Shown here: positions 3,223-59,177 of the stretch, piece after piece
Position numbering within the stretch: the first letter of the stretch is position 1
Layout of the letters: each line of letters begins with the position of its first letter
Sequence record: OP595145.1
Strand: one strand, 5' to 3'
Length of the DNA: 64,000 bases
DNA from: Escherichia phage vB_EcoM_DE16
The notes under the pieces: model-generated
What the model saw: the letters and a program-made list of their open reading frames with translations, nothing else
Told to the model about the DNA's origin: nothing
Databases searched by the model: none
Made by a program: the position numbers and the translations under genes

Positions 3223-3680
3223 GACAATTCACTATACTGGCAGCTTATGTGCAATGTGTTCACGATTATGTTAGTGCTCATACAGGTGTGCTGGAAGTTA
3301 CCAGTAAAATTGAAGGTAATATGGGTACTGTCTGTGTGCAACATACTTTATCCAATGTGCCGTTTAAAGTGTTCACTGTTGTAGCTGCCGATTACAATCG
3401 TGTAGATGTGCGTTTCTTGGATCATAATTTTCGTAACGCACTAGATAATATCGAAGATTATCTTCCCGTGAAACCTTTGTCATTTCCACCGAGTCGTGCA
3501 AATAATGTAGTGACAAACCTTAATGAAAGGAATGTGGCTATGCACAAAAAAGTCCGTCAACTGAAAACGCTGATGGAAATGCAAGAAGAGATTGAAAAAG
3601 AATTGAAAGAAGATTTTGGTATGCTTCCAAAAGACGCTTTGAAATGGTATGATGAACTAGGAGGAGAAAGTTATGAATAA
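3219..3680 (+). CDS. hypothetical protein (153 aa)
   Basis: ORF with SD GGGAGG upstream, ATGA overlap with previous gene. Confidence 0.6.
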   Translation: MRQFTILAAYVQCVHDYVSAHTGVLEVTSKIEGNMGTVCVQHTLSNVPFKVFTVVAADYNRVDVRFLDHNFRNALDNIEDYLPVKPLSFPPSRANNVVTNLNERNVAMHKKVRQLKTLMEMQEEIEKELKEDFGMLPKDALKWYDELGGESYE

Positions 3681-3867
3681 AGGAACTACTGTATATTTAG
3701 TGACTAAGAACACCCCAGGTTGGAGCCAATGCAGCACTGTCCCTTACAAGATCTGTGCAACATTAGAACTAGCACAACGTGCAGAAGCAGAAGTGGATGC
3801 CATGCAATACAGCTATGGTGAGATCATTCCTTTTACTCTTGAACAAGAAGGAGCACATCATGTTTAA
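3673..3867 (+). CDS. hypothetical protein (64 aa)
   Basis: ORF with SD AGGAGG upstream. Confidence 0.5.
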   Translation: MNKGTTVYLVTKNTPGWSQCSTVPYKICATLELAQRAEAEVDAMQYSYGEIIPFTLEQEGAHHV

Positions 3868-19963: not shown

Positions 19964-19984
19964 AAAGGGGCCGAAGCCCCTTGA
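19964..19984 (-). terminator. intercistronic hairpin GGGGCUUCGGCCCC (UUCG tetraloop)
   Basis: same hairpin recurs at 32064-32081 and 38233-38248, each just upstream of an SD. Confidence 0.55.
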
Positions 19985-19989
19985 GTGGT

Positions 19990-20805
19990 TTATTTGTTTA
20001 AGTGGTCTTCGACCATTTTAATGAAACCTTCATTGCTGAAGGCTGTTGCAGCTTTTTCTCGGTAAACAAAAACTCCACGATCTTCATAGAGAAGTGTTTC
20101 TTCGTAATTAACTCCAGGGTTAACTACAACCATTTTTGTACCCATACTAAGCGCAGGGAATAATTCCCAATTAAAATTGATAACTTGGTTTGAACATCCT
20201 ACTACTACAACCAAATCTTGCATGGTCAAAGTATCGAACAAGTGAGCCATATCTGCATACAAAGGTGCAGCCTCACCAAAAAATACAACATTAGGCTTCA
20301 CCCAGTTATAATCATCTATGTTTATACTATTGTAACCAATATCTACCAGTGTTTTGTAATCTCCAGGATGCATACGGTAAACTACTTCAGGAAGATATCC
20401 GTGTACGTGAATAACAGAATCTCTGTCTACACCTGCTCGCTCTAGTAGATCATCAACGTTTGTTGTCAAGTTTACTATTTGGTTAGGATATTCCTTAAAC
20501 CACTTTGCTATTTGAATATGTGCAGCATTAGGTTGTACATCTTTAAGCTCAACACGTCTTTTGTTATAAAATTCGTGTGTTTTGGCATACAAATCCATAC
20601 CGTTCTCGTCTACACCACCGACCACTGGAAGATCTGGAGATGTTCTAACACGATAACCTGCTTGGAAAGCTCCAATATCGCAGACCTCTTCTAAATCATA
20701 TTCTTCCCATAAAGCACGACCACTATCTGTGTCTGTTCTAAATGTTCGAATCCCACTGTCTGCACTTAAACCTGCACCGCTTACAAAAATCACTCGTCTT
20801 GGCAT
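19990..20805 (-). CDS. Sir2-family NAD-dependent deacetylase-like protein
   Basis: GAGLSADSGIRTFR (sirtuin NAD-binding motif) and downstream HVHG histidine; 271 aa. Confidence 0.65.
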   Translation of the reverse strand: MPRRVIFVSGAGLSADSGIRTFRTDTDSGRALWEEYDLEEVCDIGAFQAGYRVRTSPDLPVVGGVDENGMDLYAKTHEFYNKRRVELKDVQPNAAHIQIAKWFKEYPNQIVNLTTNVDDLLERAGVDRDSVIHVHGYLPEVVYRMHPGDYKTLVDIGYNSINIDDYNWVKPNVVFFGEAAPLYADMAHLFDTLTMQDLVVVVGCSNQVINFNWELFPALSMGTKMVVVNPGVNYEETLLYEDRGVFVYREKAATAFSNEGFIKMVEDHLNK

Positions 20806-21275
20806 TCTTCCTCCTCAAATGGATCATAAGAATTGTACTCGTAAGTATCATCTTCTGAAAATTCTACTTCGAAATAAATATCAAACTCTGCAAACAGACG
20901 TAGGATGTTAGACATGCTGTAATAATTATCGTAGGCAGATTCAGCTTCATAGTAAACATAAAGCAAATGGTTAGCCTTATCATCTTCCAAATATTTCCCG
21001 TCTGCATACGCATAGTCTGCATATGCTTTACCTGCATCTTCCACAAGAGAACGATCAAGCAGAGTAGGAAATGGTTTCTCTTTTTCTTTTAGTTTGCTCA
21101 CTAACCAATGTGCAATATCATTCCATTCTGCATCCATACCACTAAAGCAACTTGCTTCTTCTCCAAAAGAAGCTTCTCCTAAATCGCCACTAATACGAAT
21201 AACATTAGATGAATTATAGCCACACGTTTCACAATCAGAGTAACTATTATGCACATTGACATTTACTTGAAACAT
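20790..21275 (-). CDS. hypothetical acidic protein (161 aa)
   Basis: ORF in co-directional block. Confidence 0.5.
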   Translation of the reverse strand: MFQVNVNVHNSYSDCETCGYNSSNVIRISGDLGEASFGEEASCFSGMDAEWNDIAHWLVSKLKEKEKPFPTLLDRSLVEDAGKAYADYAYADGKYLEDDKANHLLYVYYEAESAYDNYYSMSNILRLFAEFDIYFEVEFSEDDTYEYNSYDPFEEEECQDE

Positions 21276-21333
21276 ATTCCCTCCTATAAAAGAAAAGCCC
21301 CCTGAAACAGGAGGCTTTGTTCAGAGGCTGGCA

Positions 21334-21987
21334 CTATACCAGACTTTGTAGGTATTTGTCAAGGGCTTCTTGATCGCCTTGACAAACATAGCAACGGAAG
21401 TCTTGAGCCGAAGGTTGTTTATTTTCATCCCAGTCCCAATAAACATTACCCTTATAACGTGAACCAGGAAACTCAAAAGAGGCTGTATGTGTAATGTATC
21501 CTGGGCCACCAGTGAAATCACAGAATGAGAATTGGGGGTATGCCGCCTTTACTGCCTCAATAAACCAAGCTTTACGATCTAAAGCTTCATTGATGCTATA
21601 CGCATGTCTCTCCATTTCTTCCCACGTTTTCCAGACACTTCTCTCATCAGGAGAAAAGACAAGCCATTCTGGAAGGTATAGAGTGTCATAGTAATCATCA
21701 TATTCGATCTCGGAGGCGCACGAAGCTGACTCCTCCAGTTTTGAGTAATCAAAAGCAGAATATACCCACCAACCATCTTCCAGTAACGCTTTGATAGGGA
21801 CGAAGCCTTTATCAGCATATTGATCGAATTGTTTGACACGGTGGCTTGTGCAGTCTTCAAACTCACATTCTAAACGATATGCACCTTTTCGACGAGCCTC
21901 AAGACCGTGTGTACTGAAAATAACAACACTTCCTTCACCATCATTACGATCTACTTGATAAGCAACCACTGGTTTTGAATTTGACAT
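21334..21987 (-). CDS. hypothetical protein (217 aa)
   Basis: ORF in co-directional block. Confidence 0.55.
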   Translation of the reverse strand: MSNSKPVVAYQVDRNDGEGSVVIFSTHGLEARRKGAYRLECEFEDCTSHRVKQFDQYADKGFVPIKALLEDGWWVYSAFDYSKLEESASCASEIEYDDYYDTLYLPEWLVFSPDERSVWKTWEEMERHAYSINEALDRKAWFIEAVKAAYPQFSFCDFTGGPGYITHTASFEFPGSRYKGNVYWDWDENKQPSAQDFRCYVCQGDQEALDKYLQSLV

Positions 21988-22670: not shown

Positions 22671-23076
22671 TACCCCTCCATTCAAGACAAGCCATAACTT
22701 TACGCCAATCACTTTCTGTAAGAAAAATCTCGTTTGCTTTCTTCCACAAATCTAAATCGTGAAGGGTTGGAATACGATATGTTAGTTCACAGAATCTATG
22801 CTCTTCTTCTGTAATATAACCAAAATGCAGAGCCACATCGTGAAACCAACACCAACCATGCATCTCTCGAACAACATGGTCATGTTGAGACATTATTTTA
22901 TGCCGTAAACCTAACCAACAAGGAACAGATACTTTAGTAGTCTTTAATCTGTGATCAACAGTATTAGAGTATTCAATAATAGCTGTCAGTTTCAATCGTG
23001 CTTTTTCTAAATCCTCATGGGTCACTTTGAAATAACTTTCTGAAAGATATCCACACATATTAATAACCTCCTTCAA
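22663..23076 (-). CDS. hypothetical protein (137 aa)
   Basis: ORF; weak R-x6-H pattern only. Confidence 0.5.
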   Translation of the reverse strand: MKEVINMCGYLSESYFKVTHEDLEKARLKLTAIIEYSNTVDHRLKTTKVSVPCWLGLRHKIMSQHDHVVREMHGWCWFHDVALHFGYITEEEHRFCELTYRIPTLHDLDLWKKANEIFLTESDWRKVMACLEWRGNE

Positions 23077-24001
23077 AAGGCTTAACTACATGTTGATTAG
23101 CTTTAAAACGTTCAACATAGTCGTTTTCGCCCATGTTTTCATATAGCTTAGTAACAACATAAAAGTTTTCCCAAGCATATTCCCTAAACCAACCACTAGT
23201 GATGGATGTGCAGACTTTAGATAAAGCCATTATAAAACTTTGCTTAGGGGTTGGACCTCCGATCTCTTCACCGAAAGGAATTTGTGAACGTTCCAAAGCC
23301 AAAACACACGCTTCTTCATAAACACCTAACAGGCGCACATGTTTTGGTTGAGCAAAAAACTTTTCTTTGCTGGTCATAACTTCACTTCCATCTTTCATAT
23401 AAGATTTATATGCTGGAGCATCCATTACCGCGATTGCTTCATGGATAGAATCATGATCATAAACATACGGAACCTCATCACCTTTAAAGAAGTCTTTACT
23501 TTTTACGTTTAAGTTCGGATGAGAGTAAGTGTATGTTTCTTTCTCACGCAACTCATAAATACTCTTAAGATTTTCTGGGATCTTTGCGCCCAGTGACCGC
23601 ATGAAATGAATATCTTTCATAGTTTTAAAGAAGTGAGGACTATCCTTTTTAAAACGATGACTCATTTTAAGAAGGTAGAGCACATCTAAAGGAGCAACAA
23701 CATGTCCAGCGTAAGTTCGACGAACATCATCAGAATCTTCACAATAACTAATCAAAGCTTCTGTGCTATCTCCTTGAGAAGCAATATCGTATTCCAAATG
23801 TGCACCAGCTATCATTTTGACGTGACCTTTGTTCCCTTTACGTTCTACAAGTTCAACAAACTCGTCTTGAGAGAACATTTTTGATAATTCTTCCCACTCT
23901 TGTTCTGTACACAGGTAATCTAAATCTACACAAGGGCGATACAAGTCTTTTCCCATGTCCATAGCATGAATTTGTAATGCACGGCTACCAATTAACACCA
24001 T
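23060..24001 (-). CDS. nucleotidyltransferase-fold protein (313 aa)
   Basis: N-terminal LIGSRA ... VDLDYL resembles minimal NTase GS ... DxD signature. Confidence 0.45.
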   Translation of the reverse strand: MVLIGSRALQIHAMDMGKDLYRPCVDLDYLCTEQEWEELSKMFSQDEFVELVERKGNKGHVKMIAGAHLEYDIASQGDSTEALISYCEDSDDVRRTYAGHVVAPLDVLYLLKMSHRFKKDSPHFFKTMKDIHFMRSLGAKIPENLKSIYELREKETYTYSHPNLNVKSKDFFKGDEVPYVYDHDSIHEAIAVMDAPAYKSYMKDGSEVMTSKEKFFAQPKHVRLLGVYEEACVLALERSQIPFGEEIGGPTPKQSFIMALSKVCTSITSGWFREYAWENFYVVTKLYENMGENDYVERFKANQHVVKPFEGGY

Positions 24002-32746: not shown

Positions 32747-33007
32747 TTACTCCGCAATTTGAGCCATGAGATCACGCAGTTCGGTAAAACCGCCTACGTA
32801 TGTTACCTCCCCGTTCACTTCAGACAGAATTTGTGGAAATGTGCGTGGAGGAACTCCGGTAAGATCAACAACTGTTTTAGTCATTGATTCTAAATCATAG
32901 TCTTGGTCAAGACTTAAATATTCAAACTGTTTATTGCGCATAGTCAATAGTTGTTTTGACATTTCACAAAATTGACAGTTAGGTTTACCAAAAATTACAA
33001 ATTCCAT
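32747..33007 (-). CDS. glutaredoxin-like protein (CxxC redoxin)
   Basis: 86 aa, FGKPNCQFC active-site motif. Confidence 0.7.
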   Translation of the reverse strand: MEFVIFGKPNCQFCEMSKQLLTMRNKQFEYLSLDQDYDLESMTKTVVDLTGVPPRTFPQILSEVNGEVTYVGGFTELRDLMAQIAE

Positions 33008-33849
33008 TACCTCTCCTTATTAAGTAATACTGCTAAAGACTGTTCAATACCTTTATTTAAATCTGATTTTGTAAGATAGTGACTGGTTACTAGTTGTGAC
33101 TTCACCGGACGTGCTGCTGGAGCATTATAGGTTGAAGCTGATACCGCCGATATCTTAACAGGTTCTGGCATCTGTGTCAAGATCTTTTCCGCAAACTCCG
33201 CCCAAGAAATAAGATGGCTTCCTGCAAAATGGTAAGTCTTAACAGACCTTGACCAACCTGTTTTTAATACTTCAAAAATAGCTTCTGCTAAATCTGGAGC
33301 ATATGTTGGACAAGATAACTGATCAGCAACAATAATAAAATCACGTTGTCCATCATTATAGCGAGACAACATGGTTTTTAGAAAGTTATTTCCAAATTCG
33401 CTATATACCGAGGCTGTTCGAATAATATATGCATTTGGGTTAACTCCTCGCACCATTTTTTCACCAAGTTCTTTCGTATACCCATAATTGTTTATTGGGT
33501 TAGGTGTAGTATCTTCAAAAATAGGATGAGAATAATTAAAAATATAGTCTGTGGAAATATGCACAAAATCAATTTTAAGTTTGCTGCACACTGCCGCAAT
33601 ATTTGCAGGGCCATAAGCATTAACAGCCAAAGCAGTAGCAAAATCTTGTTCGGCTTTATCTACAGCCGTATAAGCGGCGCAATTAATAACACCATCTACA
33701 TAATCTTCAACAATAGCGTTTCGCACAGCTTCAAAATTTGTAATATCTACACGTTCTTTAGGATAAATTAAAGATACATTTGCAGGAGCAACTTTACGTA
33801 AAGCTTGTCCCAGTTGTCCATTACCACCCAATACCAGATATGTTAGCAT
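33007..33849 (-). CDS. rmlD: dTDP-4-dehydrorhamnose reductase
   Basis: N-terminal LVLGGNGQLG Rossmann motif, length 280 aa, position in rmlBACD cluster. Confidence 0.75.
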   Translation of the reverse strand: MLTYLVLGGNGQLGQALRKVAPANVSLIYPKERVDITNFEAVRNAIVEDYVDGVINCAAYTAVDKAEQDFATALAVNAYGPANIAAVCSKLKIDFVHISTDYIFNYSHPIFEDTTPNPINNYGYTKELGEKMVRGVNPNAYIIRTASVYSEFGNNFLKTMLSRYNDGQRDFIIVADQLSCPTYAPDLAEAIFEVLKTGWSRSVKTYHFAGSHLISWAEFAEKILTQMPEPVKISAVSASTYNAPAARPVKSQLVTSHYLTKSDLNKGIEQSLAVLLNKER

Positions 33850-34409
33850 ACACCCTCGCTACGTAACTGTTGAAAAGATTTAGCCATTGCATCTTTTGTT
33901 GATAGGATAGGTTTAAAACCTTCATCAAAAATCATATCGAAGCCCCAATCGATCCCTATATCAGGATCATCCCAACGTAAACTTTGTTCACTAGAAGGGT
34001 CGTATGGAGTTGTGCATTTGTATTCAAAGATAGCATCCATACTCAAAACTATAAAACCATGTGCCAAACCAGGTGGAAGCCAAAACTGCGTATGGTGTCG
34101 TGCACGAAGAACAACACCGTCCCAAGCACCGTAAGTAGGACTATCTTTACGTAAGTCTACAGCGAAATCCAATACTTCACCACTTACACAACGAACAAGC
34201 TTACCTTGCGGATTATTTGTTTGAAAGTGCATTCCTCGCAAAACACCGAAGTTTGATTTAGACATGTTATCTTGAACGAAAGTTTGTCTACCAATAATAT
34301 CTTCGTATTTTTGTTCATTATATGTTTCTAAAAAGAAACCACGGTCATCTTTATAAACGTCTGGTTTGATAATTACCGCACCTTCAATTTTTGTTTTTTC
34401 TACTTTCAT
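33843..34409 (-). CDS. rmlC: dTDP-4-dehydrorhamnose 3,5-epimerase
   Basis: cupin-type RmlC region [12 protein letters not shown]; start at ATG 34409 overlapping rmlA stop (ATGA). Confidence 0.75.
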
Positions 34410-35284
34410 TTTCCCTCCGCTAATTTGAGTAGGTATTGCCCGTACTCTGTTTTCTTCAGTGAGTTTCCATGATAGACCAAAGTCTCTAAAGAAATCCACC
34501 CTTTTTTGAAAGCAATTTCTTCCAGGCACGCAATCTTCAATCCTTGACAGTTCTCAATAGTCTGCACGAATTGACCAGCTTCCATCAGACTGGCGTGTGT
34601 TCCTGTATCAAGCCAAGTAAATCCTCGTCCGAGAACTTCTACTTGTAACTTCCTGTCTTCGAGGTAGCTGCGATTGATATCGGTGATCTCCAGTTCTCCA
34701 CGCGCGGAAGGGGTTACTTCTAATGCACGTTGAATAACAGAGTTATCATAGAAATACAAACCTGTGACAGCATAATCTGATTTAGGATTTTCAGGTTTCT
34801 CTTCAATAGAAATAACTTGACGATTACTCCCAAATTCAACCACACCGAATCGTTCAGGATCTTTCACCAAACACCCGAAGATACAAGCTCCGCCCCAAAC
34901 ATCTACCATCTCACTAGCGTTAATCAGTAGTTTACCAAAGCTTTGTCCGAAGAATAGGTTGTCACCTAAAATAAGAGCAACAGAGTCTTCTCCGATAAAA
35001 TCTTTACCGATGATGAAAGCGTCCGCAAGACCTCGTGGCTCGGATTGGATTGCGTAAGTGAGTTTTATCCCAAACATAGACCCATCTCCAAGAAGATGCT
35101 CAAAGTCTTCCTGATCGCCTGGTGTGGTGATGATTAAGATATCCTTAATGTCAGCCAACATCAATACCGATAAAGGGTAGTAGATCATGGGTTTGTCATA
35201 CACAGGGAGCAATTGCTTGCTCACACTGCGTGTTACCGGATGAAGGCGGGTTCCACTTCCTCCCGCCAAAATAATACCTTTCAT
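34406..35284 (-). CDS. rmlA: glucose-1-phosphate thymidylyltransferase
   Basis: [11 protein letters not shown] ... [17 protein letters not shown] signature. Confidence 0.85.
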
Positions 35285-35292
35285 AACCCTCC

Positions 35293-36285
35293 TTAAATCT
35301 TCTCACTCCACCATTGAGGGTTGTTTAAGTACCATTCAATCGTTGAGTAGAGATCTTGTTCAAATGTAGAGTTTGCACTCCAACCCAGTTCAGACTCTAT
35401 TTTAGAAGGATTGATTTCATAACGCAAGTCATGTCCTTTACGATCTTCAACAAAAGTTATCAAGTTGGAAGAAGGGTAGGTTCCTGCTTCTGGATGTACA
35501 GCATCCATGTAGTCACAAACCATATAGATGATCTCCATATTGGTTTTGGGATTACGTGTTCCAACATTATACGTTTGACCTGGTTCTCCACCTGTTGCCA
35601 CTTGAAGAATAGCTCGCGCATGATCCTCAACAAAAAGCCAGTCTCGCACCTGATCGCCTTTACCATACACCGGAATCTCTTTATTCGTCAAGATACTTGT
35701 GATGATTTTTGGGATCAGCTTTTCTGGATGTTGATAAGGTCCAAAGTTATTGGAGCAGTTGGTTATCACAACAGGTAAACCGTAGGTACGGTACCAAGCT
35801 TTCACAAGATGGTCAGATGCTGCCTTAGACGCACTGTACGGGCTTGAAGGAGCATAAGCTGTCTCTTCGGTAAAGGGAACGCCAGAGTCTGCCATATCGC
35901 CGTACACTTCGTCTGTGGAGACGTGTACGAACATCTTCAGTTTATTTTTTGGGAGGAGCCTTGCAGCTTCCAATAAATTGTATGTGCCAATAATATTGGA
36001 GTCGATGAAAACTCGTGGATTCTTGATAGAATTATCCACATGACTCTCTGCCGCTAAGTGAATGATGAAATCGGGATTGCACTCTACTACTAAACTTTTG
36101 ACCTGGGTTTCGTTTGCCAAATCTGTTATGCTTAGTTTAACGTGAGTGATATCGCCTACATTCTCAATATCTGCTGCATAGCCCATCTTATCAACGACAA
36201 AAACTTCGTTATTGGGATCTTGACAAAGAGAGCGCACCACGGCACTCCCAATAAAACCAAGACCACCTGTTACCAGATAGCGCAT
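35293..36285 (-). CDS. rmlB: dTDP-glucose 4,6-dehydratase
   Basis: [10 protein letters not shown] Rossmann motif and YSASK catalytic Y-x3-K. Confidence 0.85.
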
Positions 36286-47707: not shown

Positions 47708-48433
47708 TTACTTATTAATAATACCTGCAATATTAGGTTTGACAAAGGTCGATGGTTTCATGATCTTACCTTTATCATCAAAGAACACATACACTTTCTG
47801 TTTTTCATTATAAACAGCATGAACACCAGTGTATGCCCCTTCTGGACGATTGGCATTTCGTTCTTCAATTGCAGCGCATTCTTGTGCAATGGCTGAATCG
47901 ATATCTGAAGTTTTCCAAGTTTTCAGCAACTGTTGTTTAGTTGGATACTTGGAATCATTACTTTTCAATACCTCTTTAATAACTTTCTTTTCTGGATATT
48001 TTGAACGGATTAGAGTGTCACGAGACATACGCATAATACCCGCAGCCATTAGCGCCATTTGAACTGGCTCTGTAAATGTTTGTTCCAAAGCATCGAAATC
48101 GGTATACACAGTTGGAGTAAAAACATCGCCTACAGCATAGTCCAAGAAATTCATCGTATGTTCTTCACCAAAGAACATGTAAGTCAGATAACTGGATACT
48201 ACAAAAATATCCGCTGCTGCATCCAAGAGTTCTACATGATCGTTTACTTTCGCGGCTGTTTCATACTCTTTAAGCTCTTCACGAACGAACCCGATTTGAG
48301 ACATAAATAGCTCTTGAGTGAATTCAGGTTGTTCACCACCTCGTGCTTTGGCATTCCAATCAATCACGTGCTTCGCGGCATTTTTGAAAAATTCAGTATC
48401 GAACTTAATATCTTTAAAAAAATTCTCGATCAT
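47708..48433 (-). CDS. MazG-like nucleotide pyrophosphohydrolase domain protein
   Basis: EELKEYE ... ELLDAAADIF resembles MazG/HisE E-x2-E ... E-x3-D metal-binding helix pair. Confidence 0.4.
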   Translation of the reverse strand: MIENFFKDIKFDTEFFKNAAKHVIDWNAKARGGEQPEFTQELFMSQIGFVREELKEYETAAKVNDHVELLDAAADIFVVSSYLTYMFFGEEHTMNFLDYAVGDVFTPTVYTDFDALEQTFTEPVQMALMAAGIMRMSRDTLIRSKYPEKKVIKEVLKSNDSKYPTKQQLLKTWKTSDIDSAIAQECAAIEERNANRPEGAYTGVHAVYNEKQKVYVFFDDKGKIMKPSTFVKPNIAGIINK

Positions 48434-50695: not shown

Positions 50696-51100
50696 TTATT
50701 GAAGTTTAAGTGAACCACGAAGACGTTTCTCTTGCTGATCACGGATATATTGTGGAACCTCGTGAATTGAATCATTACCGTGCCTATTTTCAACAACTAA
50801 AGAGATAACTTGATAACCAAACTCTTCAGCAAGAGCTAGATAAGGTTTAAGTTCTTTCTCTGTGGTTGAAGTATTAGAAACAATAATCTTGTTAAGATTA
50901 GATGCCATAGCATCACGAACAATACCCTGACACCATGCGTGTGCTTTACCTACATTTTCTGGCTTCCAGTCGTAAACACCACTTTCTGTGTAATGATATT
51001 GATCTGCCTCACAGATAGGCCAATAACCTTCAGAAATAATTTCTGCTACCGTAGATTTACCAGCACCTGAAACGCCACGTAAAATGATAAGTTGTTTCAT
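50696..51100 (-). CDS. polynucleotide kinase-like P-loop kinase
   Basis: Walker A GVSGAGKST; KIIVSNTSTTEKELKPYLALAEEFGYQV resembles T4 Pnk kinase domain segment. Confidence 0.55.
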   Translation of the reverse strand: MKQLIILRGVSGAGKSTVAEIISEGYWPICEADQYHYTESGVYDWKPENVGKAHAWCQGIVRDAMASNLNKIIVSNTSTTEKELKPYLALAEEFGYQVISLVVENRHGNDSIHEVPQYIRDQQEKRLRGSLKLQ

Positions 51101-52033
51101 TTATCCTCCAAAGAAGTTTTCGATTTTTTCACGTCGCTCTTGCTGATTTAAAGCAGCCCATTGAGTCTTCGTAAAATTATTTCGAATCCATTCTAACAAA
51201 GCGTAATATTCTTCGTCAACAATTTGTTTGGCATTTTTCGGATTATCCCAAATCAGATCCCACTTTTTATCTCCACCGCGCATAAGAAACTTCTTAGTAA
51301 GATAGTGTGGTGATTTAATTTTTAAAAGTAAGTTGAACGGATAGTTTGTTTCACGAACTACAAACCCTTCGTGTTTACAATGTTTAGACATTTCAACAAC
51401 ATCTGAAAACTTAACCATTGGATGAACTTCAGGACGCTTAAATTTGGTGACAGAAGCAATTCCATCAAGAGCACCTTCAGGTAACATAAAACTTGTCCCA
51501 TCAGGTTTTTGAATTCTGGCACCAATTAAGTATGCACCTGGTTCTTCTTCGACAATATGCGGATCAGAAGGATCACAGATTTCAAAAAGGAAAGTTGCTT
51601 TTGCGCTCTCTGTCCATTTGATGAAATGTTCTATGTCATCACACTCTGAAACAATATGATTCTTTGCAATACTTGCAAAATCTGATTCAAGGCTTCCTGT
51701 TGTCGATACAATAAGTTGACCTTTATATACACCTACAGAGGCCATAAAACCATTTACTTTACGAACCACATCTACAAGTTCATCCGCTGGTAGATCTGTG
51801 CCATTCTCAAAACGATTAAAAATCTTAGTGAAAGGCCAAATAACAACATTGTCATCACCATCAACAACGATTCCGCGACATTCTAGAAGACGAGAATCAA
51901 TGTTCCATAGGTTATCCCAGAAAACTTTGTTCTTATACTTAAGAACAGATAGACCAGAATACTCTCCTTCTTTATATGTTTTCTTATGAACTAAACCTTT
52001 TTCAACCAAATCGTCGCAATTAAATTTAGTCAC
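51101..52033 (-). CDS. RNA ligase-like nucleotidyltransferase
   Basis: motif I KVNGF, motif III FLFEIC, motif IV EGFVVR, motif V LLKIKS; flanked by kinase and phosphoesterase. Confidence 0.5.
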   Translation of the reverse strand: MTKFNCDDLVEKGLVHKKTYKEGEYSGLSVLKYKNKVFWDNLWNIDSRLLECRGIVVDGDDNVVIWPFTKIFNRFENGTDLPADELVDVVRKVNGFMASVGVYKGQLIVSTTGSLESDFASIAKNHIVSECDDIEHFIKWTESAKATFLFEICDPSDPHIVEEEPGAYLIGARIQKPDGTSFMLPEGALDGIASVTKFKRPEVHPMVKFSDVVEMSKHCKHEGFVVRETNYPFNLLLKIKSPHYLTKKFLMRGGDKKWDLIWDNPKNAKQIVDEEYYALLEWIRNNFTKTQWAALNQQERREKIENFFGG

Positions 52034-52034
52034 A

Positions 52035-52586
52035 TTACTCTCCTTTGATTATTTTGTGATGGTCTACAGTTACGATATCTCGTTTACTCATCATAGAAAT
52101 TATCTCATCAAAATGCAAGATTTTTCCGTGTGCATCCCAACCCACATCTAACATTTTACCATAAGCTTCATCAGGGAAAGATCCGTGGGAATGCCCGTGT
52201 AGCATGATTGATCCACGACCTTGTTTATTCCAGGAGGCAATAGGGTAATGGCTTAAGACGAAGAACAGCTTCTGGTATTTCACTTCGTCATAATACACCA
52301 CTTCGCCATACTCTGCAAGCACTTCTCGGTGCTTGCTGTAATCATGGTTCCCAACAAGATAAGTGATATCCCCTTGCAGACGGGAAGCAATCTTACGGGT
52401 ATCTTCTTCAGTCCCGAAACAGAAGTCGCCCAAATGCCACATCTTAACACCAGGAGTAGTAGCGCATTTATTCCATGCTTCGATCAGTGCTTCTGTCATG
52501 TGGTCCATATCTTCCCACGGTCGATATTCAGGAGCAAACTCTCGTATACGTTTGTGCATAAAATGCAAATCACTTGTAATAAACAT
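52035..52586 (-). CDS. calcineurin-like metallophosphoesterase
   Basis: SDLHF, GDFCFG, GNHD, HGHSH motifs. Confidence 0.65.
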   Translation of the reverse strand: MFITSDLHFMHKRIREFAPEYRPWEDMDHMTEALIEAWNKCATTPGVKMWHLGDFCFGTEEDTRKIASRLQGDITYLVGNHDYSKHREVLAEYGEVVYYDEVKYQKLFFVLSHYPIASWNKQGRGSIMLHGHSHGSFPDEAYGKMLDVGWDAHGKILHFDEIISMMSKRDIVTVDHHKIIKGE

Positions 52587-52942
52587 TAGTATAATCCCTC
52601 GCTAAATAGGTCACGATCATGACCATTACGTTCGTAGTCAATCTGGTCTGCGTGTTTTGCAATAATGTATGCATCTTCACGACTCCACCAATTGTAGTAT
52701 TGATCAATAAAACCTTGATTGTTTGGAAGACAATGCACTTTATCAAGCACACCTGCTTCTTTCAATACATTCAATTGTGCTGATAATATAGGATTTGCAT
52801 GTCGAACACAAGGAATAATTAACTCTTCACCATTATTCAAAATATATTTATTCGCAGCACAGACGATAACACGTTGCACATAATGACCCTCACCAATCCA
52901 GGTAAGAGGTTGGTAACAAATGTTCTGATCAATACTACTCAT
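52586..52942 (-). CDS. hypothetical protein (118 aa)
   Basis: ORF in co-directional block. Confidence 0.5.
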   Translation of the reverse strand: MSSIDQNICYQPLTWIGEGHYVQRVIVCAANKYILNNGEELIIPCVRHANPILSAQLNVLKEAGVLDKVHCLPNNQGFIDQYYNWWSREDAYIIAKHADQIDYERNGHDRDLFSEGLY

Positions 52943-52953
52943 TAAGTTTCTCC

Positions 52954-53310
52954 TTAATAGTGAACACGAATCATTTTAATACCATAACGCAGCATGGATT
53001 CTTTTGCAAGCATGAATTTATCCCCAGCGGCGGGATTAGAAGTATGCACGAAAATGGTAGGTGAACCAAAGCAAGGTTTACCAAACGCCAGAAGTTCTTC
53101 CAAACGCAAGAAAACATCATACCCGTCTTGATCAGAATCTTCACCCAAATCGTTGTCAAAATGCCACTCGTCTACAAAACGATAACCCTTCTGCACCTCA
53201 TTCATGTAACGAGAGGCAAGAAGTTCCTGTGAGGTTTTAAACCAGATTGCATCTGGACAACCATAATCTTTTGGATCACGTAAATCATCAAGCCAAATAA
53301 TAGTACCCAT
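52954..53310 (-). CDS. hypothetical protein (118 aa)
   Basis: ORF in co-directional block. Confidence 0.5.
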   Translation of the reverse strand: MGTIIWLDDLRDPKDYGCPDAIWFKTSQELLASRYMNEVQKGYRFVDEWHFDNDLGEDSDQDGYDVFLRLEELLAFGKPCFGSPTIFVHTSNPAAGDKFMLAKESMLRYGIKMIRVHY

Positions 53311-57065: not shown

Positions 57066-57140
57066 GGCCCTGTAGCTCAATGGGAGAGCTGTCGGCTCAT
57101 AACCGATAGGTAGCTGGATCGAAACCAGCCAGGGCCACCA
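57066..57140 (+). tRNA. tRNA-Met/Ile2 (anticodon CAT)
   Basis: full cloverleaf: acceptor GGCCCTG/CAGGGCC, loop CTCATAA, encoded CCA; resembles lysidine-type Ile tRNA. Confidence 0.8.
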
Positions 57141-57142
57141 AC

Positions 57143-57217
57143 GTCTTTATGGTGTAATGGATAGCACAGGAGTCTTCTAAACTCTTAGTCAAGGTTCGAT
57201 TCCTTGTAAAGACACCA
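57143..57217 (+). tRNA. tRNA-Arg (anticodon TCT)
   Basis: acceptor GTCTTTA/TAAAGAC, anticodon loop CTTCTAA, T-loop TTCGATT, CCA. Confidence 0.8.
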
Positions 57218-57414
57218 GAATATTTTAACATGAATTAGCTCAAGTGATTTGAACCCCACTACTGATCATGGTGGCAGAGAATGAGGCAAGTATGTCAGAC
57301 ATTATAAACAAAGGCCACGGTTATATTAGAAGACATAGACGCTCGAAGAGCACCGTTCGTGGAGAACGGGGGTTGGTGGAGTCACCATTCATGGTAAAAT
57401 GTTTTAAAAAACTA

Positions 57415-57444
57415 TTGACAACAAACATTATTTTATGTTAGATT
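57415..57444 (+). promoter_or_regulatory. promoter AACTATTGACA-N18-TAGATT
   Basis: same conserved -35 context as 56826 and 58570. Confidence 0.45.
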
Positions 57445-57452
57445 ATAAGTAT

Positions 57453-57543
57453 GGAAGGGCAAATCGACGTGGCGACGAAAACGGTCTTGAAAACCGCCGA
57501 GCTTGAAAGAGCCTTGGGAGTTCGACTCTCCCTCCTTCCGCCA
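57453..57543 (+). tRNA. tRNA-Ser (anticodon TGA), type II
   Basis: acceptor GGAAGGG/TCCTTCC, loop CTTGAAA, long variable arm, T-loop TTCGACT, CCA. Confidence 0.7.
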
Positions 57544-57548
57544 GATTA

Positions 57549-57634
57549 GGTAGATTGGTGAAATGGTAGCCACAACAGTTTGCTAAACTGTAGTCGGAAA
57601 CGGCGTGTAGGTTCGAGTCCTACATCTACCGCCA
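57549..57634 (+). tRNA. tRNA-Ser (anticodon GCT), type II
   Basis: acceptor GGTAGAT/ATCTACC, loop TTGCTAA, long variable arm, CCA. Confidence 0.75.
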
Positions 57635-57764
57635 AGTTCTTTTTAATATAGCTTACTTTAATAGAGTAAACTTTCGGCAGATGGCCTCCACCATCTTACC
57701 GATACTTCATAGTTAGTGGTGCGAACACTGGCTATTTTAAAAAGAATTTAAATACTAGCATTTA

Positions 57765-57852
57765 GGTGAGTTAATTCCGTAGGGGTAGCGGGGCAGACTG
57801 TAAATCTGTTATCATTGCGATTCGGGTGGTTCGACTCCATCACTCACCACCA
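57765..57852 (+). tRNA. tRNA-Tyr (anticodon GTA), type II
   Basis: acceptor GGTGAGT/ACTCACC, anticodon arm GCAGA-CTGTAAA-TCTGT, CCA. Confidence 0.75.
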
Positions 57853-57858
57853 AATTAA

Positions 57859-57944
57859 GATGAGTTGGCTGAATGGTTTAAGCGGCGGACTGTTAATCCG
57901 TGTTCGAAAGAACGATATAGGTTCAAATCCTATACTCATCGCCA
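57859..57944 (+). tRNA. tRNA-Asn-like (anticodon GTT) with atypical 15-nt variable arm
   Basis: anticodon arm GCGGA-CTGTTAA-TCCGT matches Asn tRNAs, but GTTC-GAAA-GAAC hairpin inserted in variable region. Confidence 0.5.
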
Positions 57945-57951
57945 GAATTAT

Positions 57952-58028
57952 GGACTTGTAGAGTTAAGGTAAACCCCCAGTCGCCAAGAGGCTTCTGGAA
58001 TTGCAGGTATCGAATCCTGCCGAGTCCC
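57952..58028 (+). other. degenerate tRNA-like element
   Basis: 7-bp acceptor pairing and T-arm GCAGG ... CCTGC with 8-nt loop, but no canonical anticodon arm. Confidence 0.3.
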
Positions 58029-58034
58029 AGCTTT

Positions 58035-58109
58035 GCTCCTATAGTATAATGGCTATTACAACGGTTTTGTAATCCGTGGATCTCTGTTCGATTCAGAGTG
58101 GGAGCACCA
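58035..58109 (+). tRNA. tRNA-Thr (anticodon TGT)
   Basis: acceptor GCTCCTA/TGGGAGC, loop TTTGTAA, T-arm CTCTG-TTCGATT-CAGAG, CCA. Confidence 0.75.
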
Positions 58110-58569
58110 ACATAACAGGTAAGAACATTTAGGCTACTGAGAAATCATCCGAGGCAATCAGACCTATCTTCTGTTAAGTGTTCTTATCGTTGTGAAGAAA
58201 GCAAACTTATTGAATGTAAGCGGACGAAAGACATTCACTAACCTGTAGTAAGGTCGAGCCAAAGCGCGGTAATGAGTTCCGAGGTTAGTATTCACAACAC
58301 AACATTAAGAGCACTGTGATTGATCGTCGTATCCTGTGCACAAGGTCTGCTCGAAAGACAGTGTTCTTAGTATTGTGTTGATCACAAAAAGAGTTACCTG
58401 AAACTTGACCGGAGTAGGGTTGGATGGGGCAAAAGAAGAAGCGGCTCTCCCATCGACAGCAACGAAGAATAATATTTGACTTTGGTTTTGTATTATTTTA
58501 AGTTAGCTTACCGAACGTAGGGCTAGTCACCCAATGGGATACTCGTCACTGTCCCACTCAATAAAACTA

Positions 58570-58599
58570 TTGACAACCAATAGTAAAATGTAGTATAGT
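58570..58599 (+). promoter_or_regulatory. promoter AACTATTGACA-N18-TATAGT
   Basis: perfect -35 and 5/6 -10, just upstream of tRNA-Gly. Confidence 0.55.
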
Positions 58600-58610
58600 A
58601 AAGATGTAGG

Positions 58611-58684
58611 GCGTTCTTGGTGTAGCGGTAGCATTCCGTCCTTCCAAGTCGGCGGCACGAGTTCGATCCTCGTAGAACGCTCCA
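58611..58684 (+). tRNA. tRNA-Gly (anticodon TCC)
   Basis: acceptor GCGTTCT/AGAACGC, loop CTTCCAA, T-arm ACGAG-TTCGATC-CTCGT, CCA. Confidence 0.7.
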
Positions 58685-58782
58685 AATTATTTAATAAAGG
58701 GTTGCCAGAAAACTTTCTCTTTTACTCATGGTTTTCTCCTTCTCTCACACCTCTTCTGGTTGCCCTTCATTAAATGATTTAT

Positions 58783-58858
58783 TGGTTTGTAGTGTAGTCA
58801 GGTAGCACACGACACTTTGACTGTCGTAGGTTTGGTTCAAATCCAGACAGACCAGCCA
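58783..58858 (+). tRNA. tRNA-Gln (anticodon TTG)
   Basis: U1-A72 acceptor TGGTTTG/CAGACCA, anticodon arm CGACA-CTTTGAC-TGTCG, discriminator G, CCA. Confidence 0.8.
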
Positions 58859-58863
58859 TATAA

Positions 58864-58940
58864 CGGAATTTAGCTCAGTTTGGTAGAGTGTACGCTTTGG
58901 GAGCGTATTGTCGCAGGTTCGAATCCTGCAATTCCGACCA
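58864..58940 (+). tRNA. tRNA-Pro (anticodon TGG)
   Basis: acceptor CGGAATT/AATTCCG, anticodon arm TACGC-TTTGGGA-GCGTA, CCA. Confidence 0.8.
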
Positions 58941-58946
58941 ATTAAA

Positions 58947-59020
58947 TGTTTCGTAGTTCAATGGTAGAACCCACGACTGATAATCGTGAGACACAAGTTC
59001 GATTCTTGTCGAAACAACCA
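58947..59020 (+). tRNA. tRNA-Ile (anticodon GAT)
   Basis: acceptor TGTTTCG/CGAAACA, D-stem GTTC/GAAC, anticodon arm CACGA-CTGATAA-TCGTG, CCA. Confidence 0.75.
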
Positions 59021-59022
59021 GT

Positions 59023-59092
59023 TTCCCGTTAGACTTACAGGATAAGAGTTCCACAGCTTATTGTGATGCTGGTTCGAATCCAGCACGGGATA
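59023..59092 (+). other. degenerate tRNA-like element
   Basis: canonical T-arm GCTGG-TTCGAAT-CCAGC and acceptor pairing but no canonical anticodon arm; too short for full cloverleaf. Confidence 0.3.
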
Positions 59093-59098
59093 CCTAAT

Positions 59099-59177
59099 AG
59101 CGGGATAGAGGAGTCTGGTCGTCCTCGCCAGTTTCATATGCTGGAGATCATTGGTTCAAATCCAATTCCCGCCTCCA
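59099..59177 (+). tRNA. tRNA-Met (anticodon CAT), 1-72 mismatch
   Basis: D-stem GAGG/CCTC, anticodon arm CCAGT-TTCATAT-GCTGG, T-arm ATTGG-TTCAAAT-CCAAT, CCA; A1 opposite C72. Confidence 0.65.

Follow-up and report, generated by a model that had tools for sequence, protein, structure and literature searches.

Phage sirtuins have been described before. Skliros et al. (2016; PMC5107563) reported that the 'Sir2/cobB' of KVP40 and phiSt2 lacks zinc ligands and is transcribed 20 min post infection. They inferred that the acetyl-lysine tunnel is conserved, and they named T5, SPC35 and others as carriers of sir2. Iyer, Burroughs, Anantharaman and Aravind (2022; PMC9503650) recognized sirtuins that form a clade of their own in phages, with examples from Serratia phage BF, Escherichia coli phage V5, Proteus phage Mydo and the T5-like phage SP15, and used gene neighbourhoods to predict that these proteins remove 2'-phosphates from RNA in the manner of KptA. 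Here we describe a member of this clade in a 64,000-nucleotide stretch of Escherichia phage vB_EcoM_DE16 (record OP595145.1), which we call the window. The gene, sir2, is the sole open reading frame (ORF) of 19990..20805. It lies on the minus strand, starts with ATG and encodes 271 residues. We found that it encodes a genuine, intact Sir2-family protein, a zinc-free, class-III-like sirtuin, and we tentatively read it as a protein-lysine deacylase. The clade, its zinc loss (2016) and the RNA-repair hypothesis (2022) are already described, and the only novelty of this copy is its relocated genomic position. As a sequence feature it is routine and brings no new kind of element.

A first-pass annotation, made from the sequence alone, had called the product a Sir2-family enzyme that depends on nicotinamide adenine dinucleotide (NAD), and had asked for a profile check of the family. 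This assignment was borne out. Pfam SIR2 (PF02146), which has a gathering cut-off of 24 bits, matched at 80.5 bits (E=1.9e-22), and PHROG 2162, 'Sir2 (NAD-dependent deacetylase)', matched the full length of the protein (residues 2-271, E=2.8e-104). The top sequence match among solved structures was E. coli CobB (1s5p, E=7.6e-19), and Sir2-Af2, Sir2Tm, Sir2-Af1 and SIRT5 followed. An AlphaFold2 model built from 38 homologues (predicted local distance difference test, pLDDT, 90.4; predicted template modelling score, pTM, 0.87) has the sirtuin fold, a Rossmann domain plus a small domain. When the model was compared with the PDB by Foldseek, CobB (6rxq/1s5p) again came first (E ~1e-17, template modelling score 0.69-0.84, probability 1.00). 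Sir2-Af1, Sir2-Af2, SIRT5, SIRT2 and Sir2Tm ranked below it, with the class III enzymes CobB, Sir2-Af1 and SIRT5 in the lead. Matches to the NCBIfam CobB models were significant but fell far under their cut-offs, at 106 bits against 243 for the subfamily model NF001753 and 86 bits against 320 for the CobB equivalog model NF040867. Thus, the protein is a sirtuin, but it is not a CobB equivalog.

We compared the active site of the phage protein with that of CobB (PDB 1s5p, 6rxj-6rxs), to which it is about 34% identical in the alignment. Conservation was judged in the 38 close homologues (at least 56% identity) and in a wider sample of 80 IMG/VR loci plus five annotated phage regions, whose sirtuins were grouped into 34 lineages at 75% identity. 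The NAD-binding Rossmann motif, GAGLSADSGIRTFR (residues 10-23; 20737..20778, minus strand), is the sirtuin nucleotide-binding signature that had been noticed at the first pass; it aligns with GAGISAESGIRTFR of CobB, and G10, A11, G12, S14, S17, G18, F22 and R23 are invariant in the close homologues. The class III Tyr-x-x-Arg motif is present as Y80-N-K-R83-R84 (20554..20568, minus strand) and corresponds to Y92 and R95 of CobB, the recognition motif for acidic acyl groups. Y80, R83 and R84 are invariant in the close homologues, and Y-x-x-R is found in most of the divergent viral lineages. The catalytic Asn/Asp motif, T114-T115-N116-V117-D118-D119 (20449..20466, minus strand), includes T115-N116-V117-D118 opposite Q129-N130-I131-D132 of CobB, so that Thr115 occupies the position of Q129. 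The catalytic His motif, H133-V-H135-G136 (20398..20409, minus strand), is the downstream HVHG that had been proposed to be catalytic, and its H135 aligns with CobB H147. N116, D118, H135 and G136 are invariant in the close homologues, as are F175, F176, E178 and N229; none of the key catalytic residues is lost in the alignment. N229 corresponds to the adenine-site Asn of CobB, which binds NAD+. Nearly all residues required for deacylation are also kept across the 34 viral lineages.

The residues that line the acyl pocket are similar or identical in the two proteins: A76, Y92, I131 and V187 of CobB correspond to C42, Y80, V117 and V173 of the phage sirtuin. V173-V174-F175-F176-G177-E178, which matches CobB V187-V-W-F-G-E, would form the acyl tunnel and the FGE loop. 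Thus, CobB and the phage protein have in common GAGxSxxSGIxTFR, Y-x-x-R, N-x-D, HG, the FGE loop and the adenine-site Asn. They differ in that the phage protein has no counterparts of Cys155, Cys174, Cys176 and Cys177, has Thr for Q129 and GCS (G203-C204-S205) for the GTS motif, and lacks a basic N-terminal extension. A variable insertion of about 23 residues (about residues 50-72) in the window protein is missing from the Mydovirus-like versions. The likeness to human and zebrafish SIRT5 lies in the class III fold (Foldseek E ~1e-14) and in the Tyr-x-x-Arg motif for acidic acyl groups, but identity is only 18-20%, and SIRT5 has both the zinc module and the canonical Gln (Q140).

The family, the fold, the NAD-binding and catalytic residues, the tunnel with its FGE loop, the Tyr-x-x-Arg motif and the purifying selection on the gene together lead us to infer that the protein very probably binds NAD+ and breaks the bond between nicotinamide and ribose in a way that depends on a substrate. 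We are less sure of the acceptor. We propose, a little short of an even chance, that it is acyl-lysine, and hence that the protein is a protein-lysine deacylase, possibly with a preference for acidic acyl groups. A deacylase that regulates host proteins was one suggestion of the first-pass annotation, and among the functions considered here it is the likeliest, though still tentative. Its closest matches in sequence and structure (E. coli CobB, Sir2-Af1, SIRT5 and Sir2Tm) are all lysine deacylases. By analogy with CobB and SIRT5, Y80-x-x-R83 suggests that negatively charged acyl groups, such as succinyl and malonyl, may be preferred.

We envisage the following course of events. The phage sirtuin would have descended from class III (CobB/SIRT5-like) enzymes and lost the zinc ribbon, and it would be expressed during infection from a leftward block of replication and nucleotide-metabolism genes. 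NAD+ would dock in the Rossmann site, where it would be held by the GAGxS...FR motif and N229, and N116 and D118 would help to expel nicotinamide. Acyl-lysine would enter through the conserved hydrophobic tunnel formed by V117, V173, F175-F176-G177-E178 and C42, and its carbonyl oxygen would attack C1' of the ADP-ribose. H135 would then activate a ribose hydroxyl and the intermediate would be resolved to give deacylated lysine, nicotinamide and O-acyl-ADP-ribose. The targets may be host or phage proteins, the acylation state of which would thereby be reset by the phage. In jumbo and some rV5-like relatives sir2 lies beside genes for NadV and an NMNAT-Nudix protein, and these would recycle the nicotinamide and ADP-ribose freed by a deacylase.

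The first-pass annotation had also seen no Cys4 zinc-binding module, and it was right. The whole protein contains only two cysteines, C42 and C204, and neither aligns with CobB C155, C174, C176 or C177. The place of the zinc-ribbon module is taken by a Cys-free segment, residues 137-171 (20293..20397, minus strand), which takes the form of a beta-hairpin and a further strand in the model; AlphaFold2 puts strands at 136-144, 152-155 and 168-173. In 29 of the 34 viral lineages, the window included, the zinc cysteines are missing, the counterpart of this segment is Cys-free, the Gln of TQN(I/V)D is replaced by Thr, Ala or Ser, and GCS, GSS, GAS or a more divergent variant stands in place of GTS. 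The other five lineages are CobB-like, with CxxC...CxxC and TQN, and four of them have GTSG. The window protein thus shares with the PHROG 2162 clade the absence of zinc cysteines, the T/A/S-N-(V/I)-D motif and the G-(C/S/A)-S motif. Measured against canonical class III/CobB enzymes, it has Tyr-x-x-Arg but lacks the zinc cysteines and the Gln of TQN, and it scores below the NCBIfam cut-offs.

These two changes should be read differently. A scan of bacterial species genomes, for which we give figures from the best 80 hits as a sample, showed that CxxC is missing altogether from 63 of the 80 CobB-like proteins, many of which come from Bacteroidota, and that these keep TQN. Thus, zinc loss is widespread in the CobB-like proteins of bacteria and nothing special; zinc-free class III sirtuins seem to be common in bacteria, and the loss of these cysteines is no argument against a CobB-like function. 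We also rejected zinc loss as a sign of inactivity or novelty, on the same count and because purifying selection on the gene is strong. The Gln, on the other hand, was kept in all 77 readable TQN motifs among the best 80 bacterial hits, and its replacement is the clade-specific change within our sample. Bacterial relatives were at most 39% identical to the window protein among the matches listed; the best came from metagenome-assembled genomes of Campylobacterales and have both Cys4 and TQN. When 1.84 billion representative proteins were searched with a profile, 97 matched at E<=1e-30. The top 19 motif-bearing matches all had T-(T/S/C/A)-N and none had CxxC, and a few lower-ranked proteins pair TTN with CxxC pairs. 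The first-pass annotation gave no strand, and it missed two things: the published RNA-repair alternative (PMC9503650) and the Gln-to-Thr change of the clade in TQN(I/V)D.

Several observations weigh against a deacylase. The clade has Thr, Ala or Ser in place of an otherwise conserved Gln, and the scores against the NCBIfam CobB models are low. Full-text searches of the literature turned up neither a biochemical nor a genetic test for any phage sirtuin. The fourth observation concerns the neighbours of sir2, which we clustered within 6 kb of the gene in the sampled lineages and identified by Pfam. Genes for RNA-end processing lie within this distance in 16 of the 29 zinc-free lineages: HAD_SAK_2 in some; a calcineurin-like phosphoesterase, mostly with an Rnl1 ligase, a kinase and cREC, in others; and a 2H protein with a Nudix-cREC fusion in the rest. 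These neighbours are the basis of the rival prediction of Iyer et al. (PMC9503650), published for exactly this clade, that the protein works in RNA repair as a functional counterpart of Tpt1/KptA. ADP-ribose from NAD+ would be transferred to the 2'- or another terminal phosphate of an RNA that had been cut by a host anticodon nuclease and healed via a cyclic-phosphate intermediate. H135 would then aid the attack of the ribose 2''-OH on the phosphate, which would yield 2'-OH RNA together with ADP-ribose 1'',2''-cyclic phosphate, the latter to be cleared by the cREC, 2H, HAD or Nudix proteins encoded nearby. We regard this function as unlikely for the window protein, though it is a serious competitor. 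The broader claim, that zinc-free Gln-to-Thr phage sirtuins as a group are not deacylases but ADP-ribosylate a nucleic-acid phosphate and so complete tRNA repair against anticodon nucleases, seems to us slightly more doubtful still.

Our survey independently reproduced the contexts on which the RNA-repair prediction was built. In the T5-like arrangement, PhoH, NrdD and small ORFs are followed by sir2, HAD_SAK_2 (E=4e-20) and then replication genes. The Vequintavirus- and Mydovirus-like arrangement comprises a calcineurin-like phosphoesterase, an Rnl1-like RNA ligase, an AAA_33 kinase, cREC, sir2, a DNA ligase and a MazG-like gene, sometimes with NadV nearby; in Vequintavirus an Rnl1-like ligase, cREC, sir2 and a MazG-like gene come in that order, with sir2 inserted between cREC and the MazG-like gene of a module homologous to one in the window. 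BF-like jumbo phages have an NMNAT-Nudix gene, NadV, a 2H protein, sir2, a Nudt16-like Nudix-cREC fusion and PhoH, with the 2H protein before sir2 and the fusion after it. The association is therefore repeated and independent in three phage groups, and cREC adjoins sir2 in two unrelated ones. The two-step chemistry of Tpt1 also parallels that of sirtuins, so the retained His would fit this role. There are points on the other side. The likeness to Tpt1/KptA lies in the proposed chemistry (NAD+-dependent ADP-ribosyl transfer and 2''-OH attack) and in the gene contexts of relatives; the two folds are unrelated, and the sequences show no similarity. The residues of the narrow acyl-lysine tunnel are retained in the phage protein. 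What cREC and HAD_SAK_2 do is itself a prediction, and sir2 persists in Klebsiella and Pectobacterium T5-like lineages that have no clustered homologue of HAD_SAK_2 close to it. The window protein is also strongly acidic, with 25 Lys plus Arg against 40 Asp plus Glu and an isoelectric point (pI) of 4.83. All lineages are acidic (median pI 5.0), and the CobB-S core is similar, at 5.42. We judge this acidity to be a poor fit for an RNA-binding enzyme.

Two side observations concern the annotation of these neighbours. PHROG 18062, although named 'Sir2', really fits HAD_SAK_2 phosphatase-like proteins, over their C-terminal half, and for this reason the HAD gene beside sir2 in T5-like RefSeq records is labelled 'Sir2 (NAD-dependent deacetylase)' (L003 6794-7306, L004 7211-7717). 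The 2H protein of the BF-like jumbo phages, of 148 residues and two genes upstream of sir2 (L006 6281-6727, cluster c34), carries the RefSeq label 'RNA ligase'. In Pfam it fits the anti-CBASS protein Acb1 best (E=1.6e-16), with the 2'-5' RNA ligase family ranked below.

The window itself speaks less clearly for RNA repair. The phage does have a full healing and sealing set, all on the minus strand: cREC (52954-53310), Metallophos_2 (52035-52586), a T4 Rnl1-like RNA ligase (51101-52033) and an AAA_33 kinase (50696-51100), with a 118-residue ORF also within the module (50696-53310) and a MazG-like pyrophosphohydrolase beyond it (47708-48433, minus strand). It also has a cluster of tRNA genes on the plus strand (57066-59177), in which ARAGORN found 10 genes (Met x2, Arg, Ser, Asn, Thr, Gly, Gln, Pro and Ile) and Rfam gave an eleventh, weak match (57765-57849). 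Both features favour a role for sir2 in repair. However, the module lies about 30 kb from sir2, although on the same strand, and no RNA-end-processing gene (HAD_SAK_2, cREC, 2H, Rnl1 or kinase) was found within 6 kb of the window sir2. The gene is likewise unlinked to repair genes in six lineages of the same synteny. Thus, the RNA-repair context is real in relatives but is not local to the window sir2, and the window genus and its six related lineages differ in this from the rest of the PHROG 2162 clade, in which RNA-repair or NAD-salvage genes are neighbours. A T4-type module of ligase, kinase and phosphoesterase is, moreover, complete without a 2'-phosphotransferase; in the T4 Pnkp-Rnl1 paradigm, repair needs none. 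We keep the lysine deacylase as the preferred function. The two leading readings diverge sharply, because one implies a reset of protein acylation and the other a new, RNA-directed sirtuin activity. If the protein does act on a nucleic-acid phosphate, it would become the first sirtuin with a demonstrated action on RNA.

We also considered whether the protein might use NAD+ in some other way. The first-pass annotation had set the gene against bacterial defence by NAD depletion and had offered an NAD-metabolism countermeasure as one function. This framing did not survive, whereas the family assignment and the absence of zinc did. Neither sir2 nor five of its neighbours matched any PADLOC defence model. 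Defence-type Sir2 NADases were also absent from the top 50 Foldseek matches, the nearest being the deacylases CobB, Sir2-Af1 and SIRT5; nothing in this analysis supported the countermeasure. The defence NADases (ThsA, DSR1/2, Sir2-HerA and SPARSA) and the ADP-ribosylating SirTMs share with the phage protein the Sir2 Rossmann core and NAD+ as a substrate. The phage sir2 differs from the defence enzymes in having no PADLOC match, partner domains or partner genes: no SLOG, HerA, Argonaute (pAgo) or macrodomain partner was annotated or detected near it. We rejected a defence-type NADase on these grounds. SirTMs have Gln for the catalytic His (QG for HG) and are linked to macrodomains (PMC4518038), whereas the phage protein keeps HG as HVHG and has no macrodomain gene nearby, and we rejected a SirTM-type ADP-ribosyltransferase as well.

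There is some evidence for another NAD+-consuming job: a macromolecule of the host or the phage could be ADP-ribosylated but not deacylated, or NAD+ or a metabolite derived from it could be the target in counter-defence or takeover of host metabolism. NadV turns up within 6 kb of sir2 in 10 of the 34 lineages, more than any other single neighbour, and in the BF-like phages sir2 is flanked by a NARP2-type NadV, the NMNAT-Nudix gene and the Acb1-matching 2H gene. The Gln-to-Thr change of the clade could also alter the handling of the nicotinamide-ribose. Yet the missing defence match and partners count against such a job too, the catalytic His and the acyl tunnel are conserved as in deacylases, and a free-running NADase would oppose the phage's own NAD-salvage genes. 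Sirtuin chemistry requires a nicotinamide-ribose bond, and cyclic ADP-ribose signals would therefore not be substrates. We consider a job of this kind improbable.

The distribution of sir2 bears on whether the gene does anything for the phage. The 5 kb around sir2 are 99.6% identical to those of phAPEC8-like coliphages (Phapecoctavirus, Stephanstirmvirinae), among them ESCO25, Schickermooser, anhysbys and ESCO13, and Schickermooser encodes a 100% identical protein, annotated as 'Sir2 (NAD-dependent deacetylase)'. By tblastn, homologues were found in 983 of 50,697 phage records, and 81 records had one that was at least 95% identical. Identity to the window protein is at least 95% in Phapecoctavirus, 68-76% in Justusliebigvirus- and KP13-26-like phages, 50-62% in T5-like Demerecviridae, 55-58% in Mydovirus-like Klebsiella phages, about 46% in Vequintavirus, and 35-37% in KVP40-like vibriophages and Serratia jumbo phage BF. 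The family is a tractable test case, as T5-like, rV5-like and phAPEC8-like E. coli phages all carry sir2. Comparison with two relatives of 96% amino-acid identity gave a ratio of non-synonymous to synonymous substitution rates (dN/dS) of 0.065-0.075 at dS of about 0.3, which indicates that sir2 is held by selection. This value, the intact ORF with its strong ribosome-binding site and the 81 near-identical records all argue against a decaying or dispensable passenger without a role in this phage. The viable T5-like phage DT57C points the other way. Its 'sir2' (3468-3740) is a dead fusion of 90 residues, in which Sir2 from about residue 171 is joined to residues 130-170 of HAD_SAK_2, and comparison with an intact T5-like locus (L003 5998-7306) shows that two deletions produced it. 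Thus, a viable phage can lose sir2 and HAD_SAK_2 together. For the window phage, a passenger gene nevertheless seems very improbable.

A further observation concerns the C terminus of the protein. In two homologues with an overall identity of about 70%, a C-terminal run of some 40 residues, PGVNYEETLLYEDRGVFVYREKAATAFSNEGFIKMVEDHLNK, is the same as in the window protein. This pattern suggests that recombination may have occurred within sir2 between Phapecoctavirus and related phages.

The locus has the following organization. A Shine-Dalgarno sequence, GAGGAGG (20810..20816, minus strand), lies 4 nt 5' of the sir2 ATG, within the 3' end of the upstream gene. This gene, an acidic ORF of 161 residues (PHROG 9509; 20790..21275, minus strand), overlaps the start of sir2 by 16 nt, and the two are probably co-transcribed. 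A hairpin followed by a T tract, resembling an intrinsic terminator, is found 8 nt 3' of the sir2 stop codon (19965..19982, minus strand), and an 11-bp terminator-like hairpin upstream of the 161-residue ORF (21294..21318, minus strand) bounds the two-gene unit on the other side. The counterparts of both are annotated as terminators in Schickermooser, the first of them by ARNOLD. A scan of the region for sigma-70-type promoters gave no more sites than expected by chance. One near-consensus site (TTGACA, 18 nt, TG-TATAGT; 11/12 matches) lies at 21333-21362 on the minus strand, inside the 3' end of the gene for a 217-residue protein. The 11-bp hairpin comes directly after this site and ahead of the 161-residue ORF; it may be an attenuator, a 5' stabilizer or a mere terminator of upstream transcripts. 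Rfam and ARAGORN found no RNA element near sir2, their sole matches being the tRNA cluster at 57-59 kb.

The window-type arrangement consists of DUF7277/DUF7275, a small ORF, a Dcm methylase, PHROG 8514, a variable small ORF and sir2, which ends the leftward gene block and meets rightward early genes at a convergent junction. It is common to seven lineages, with sirtuins as low as 47% identical. The gene immediately 5' of sir2 differs between related lineages, and the family of the 161-residue ORF adjoins sir2 in only three of the seven. The neighbouring proteins of 161, 217, 131 and 90 residues had no match in Pfam, PDB, PADLOC or NCBIfam; given this and the variable upstream gene, we rejected the idea that one of the adjacent genes encodes a dedicated partner. 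The 217-residue protein occurs for the most part in Stephanstirmvirinae, and phages of Pseudomonas and Xanthomonas gave a few weak matches.

The DUF7277+DUF7275 protein, of 313 residues, is encoded 2.3 kb upstream of sir2 (23060-24001, minus strand). Its invariant residues (G5-S6, D26-x-D28, E70 and H115/H123/D130/H183-D184/H187) suggest a Pol-beta-type nucleotidyltransferase head followed by a His/Asp-rich helical domain. The AlphaFold2 model (pLDDT 89.6) had as its best PDB fold match the tRNA-modifying toxin MenT1 (8an4, E=5.7e-4), with ANT(2'')-Ia and LnuA next. Homologues are found within 6 kb of sir2 in seven lineages, the KVP40-like phage nt-1 among them. A MenT-like nucleotidyltransferase fold so close to sir2 is a further point for the RNA-repair alternative.

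Elsewhere in the window, four adjacent ORFs on the minus strand (33007-36285) may encode a dTDP-sugar (rml-like) pathway. Pfam confirmed an RmlA-like nucleotidyltransferase (34406-35284) and an RmlB-like dehydratase (35293-36285) among them. These two genes are apparently extra compared with phage anhysbys, which has only an epimerase and a reductase annotated there, and they account for a coordinate shift between the window and the anhysbys genome.

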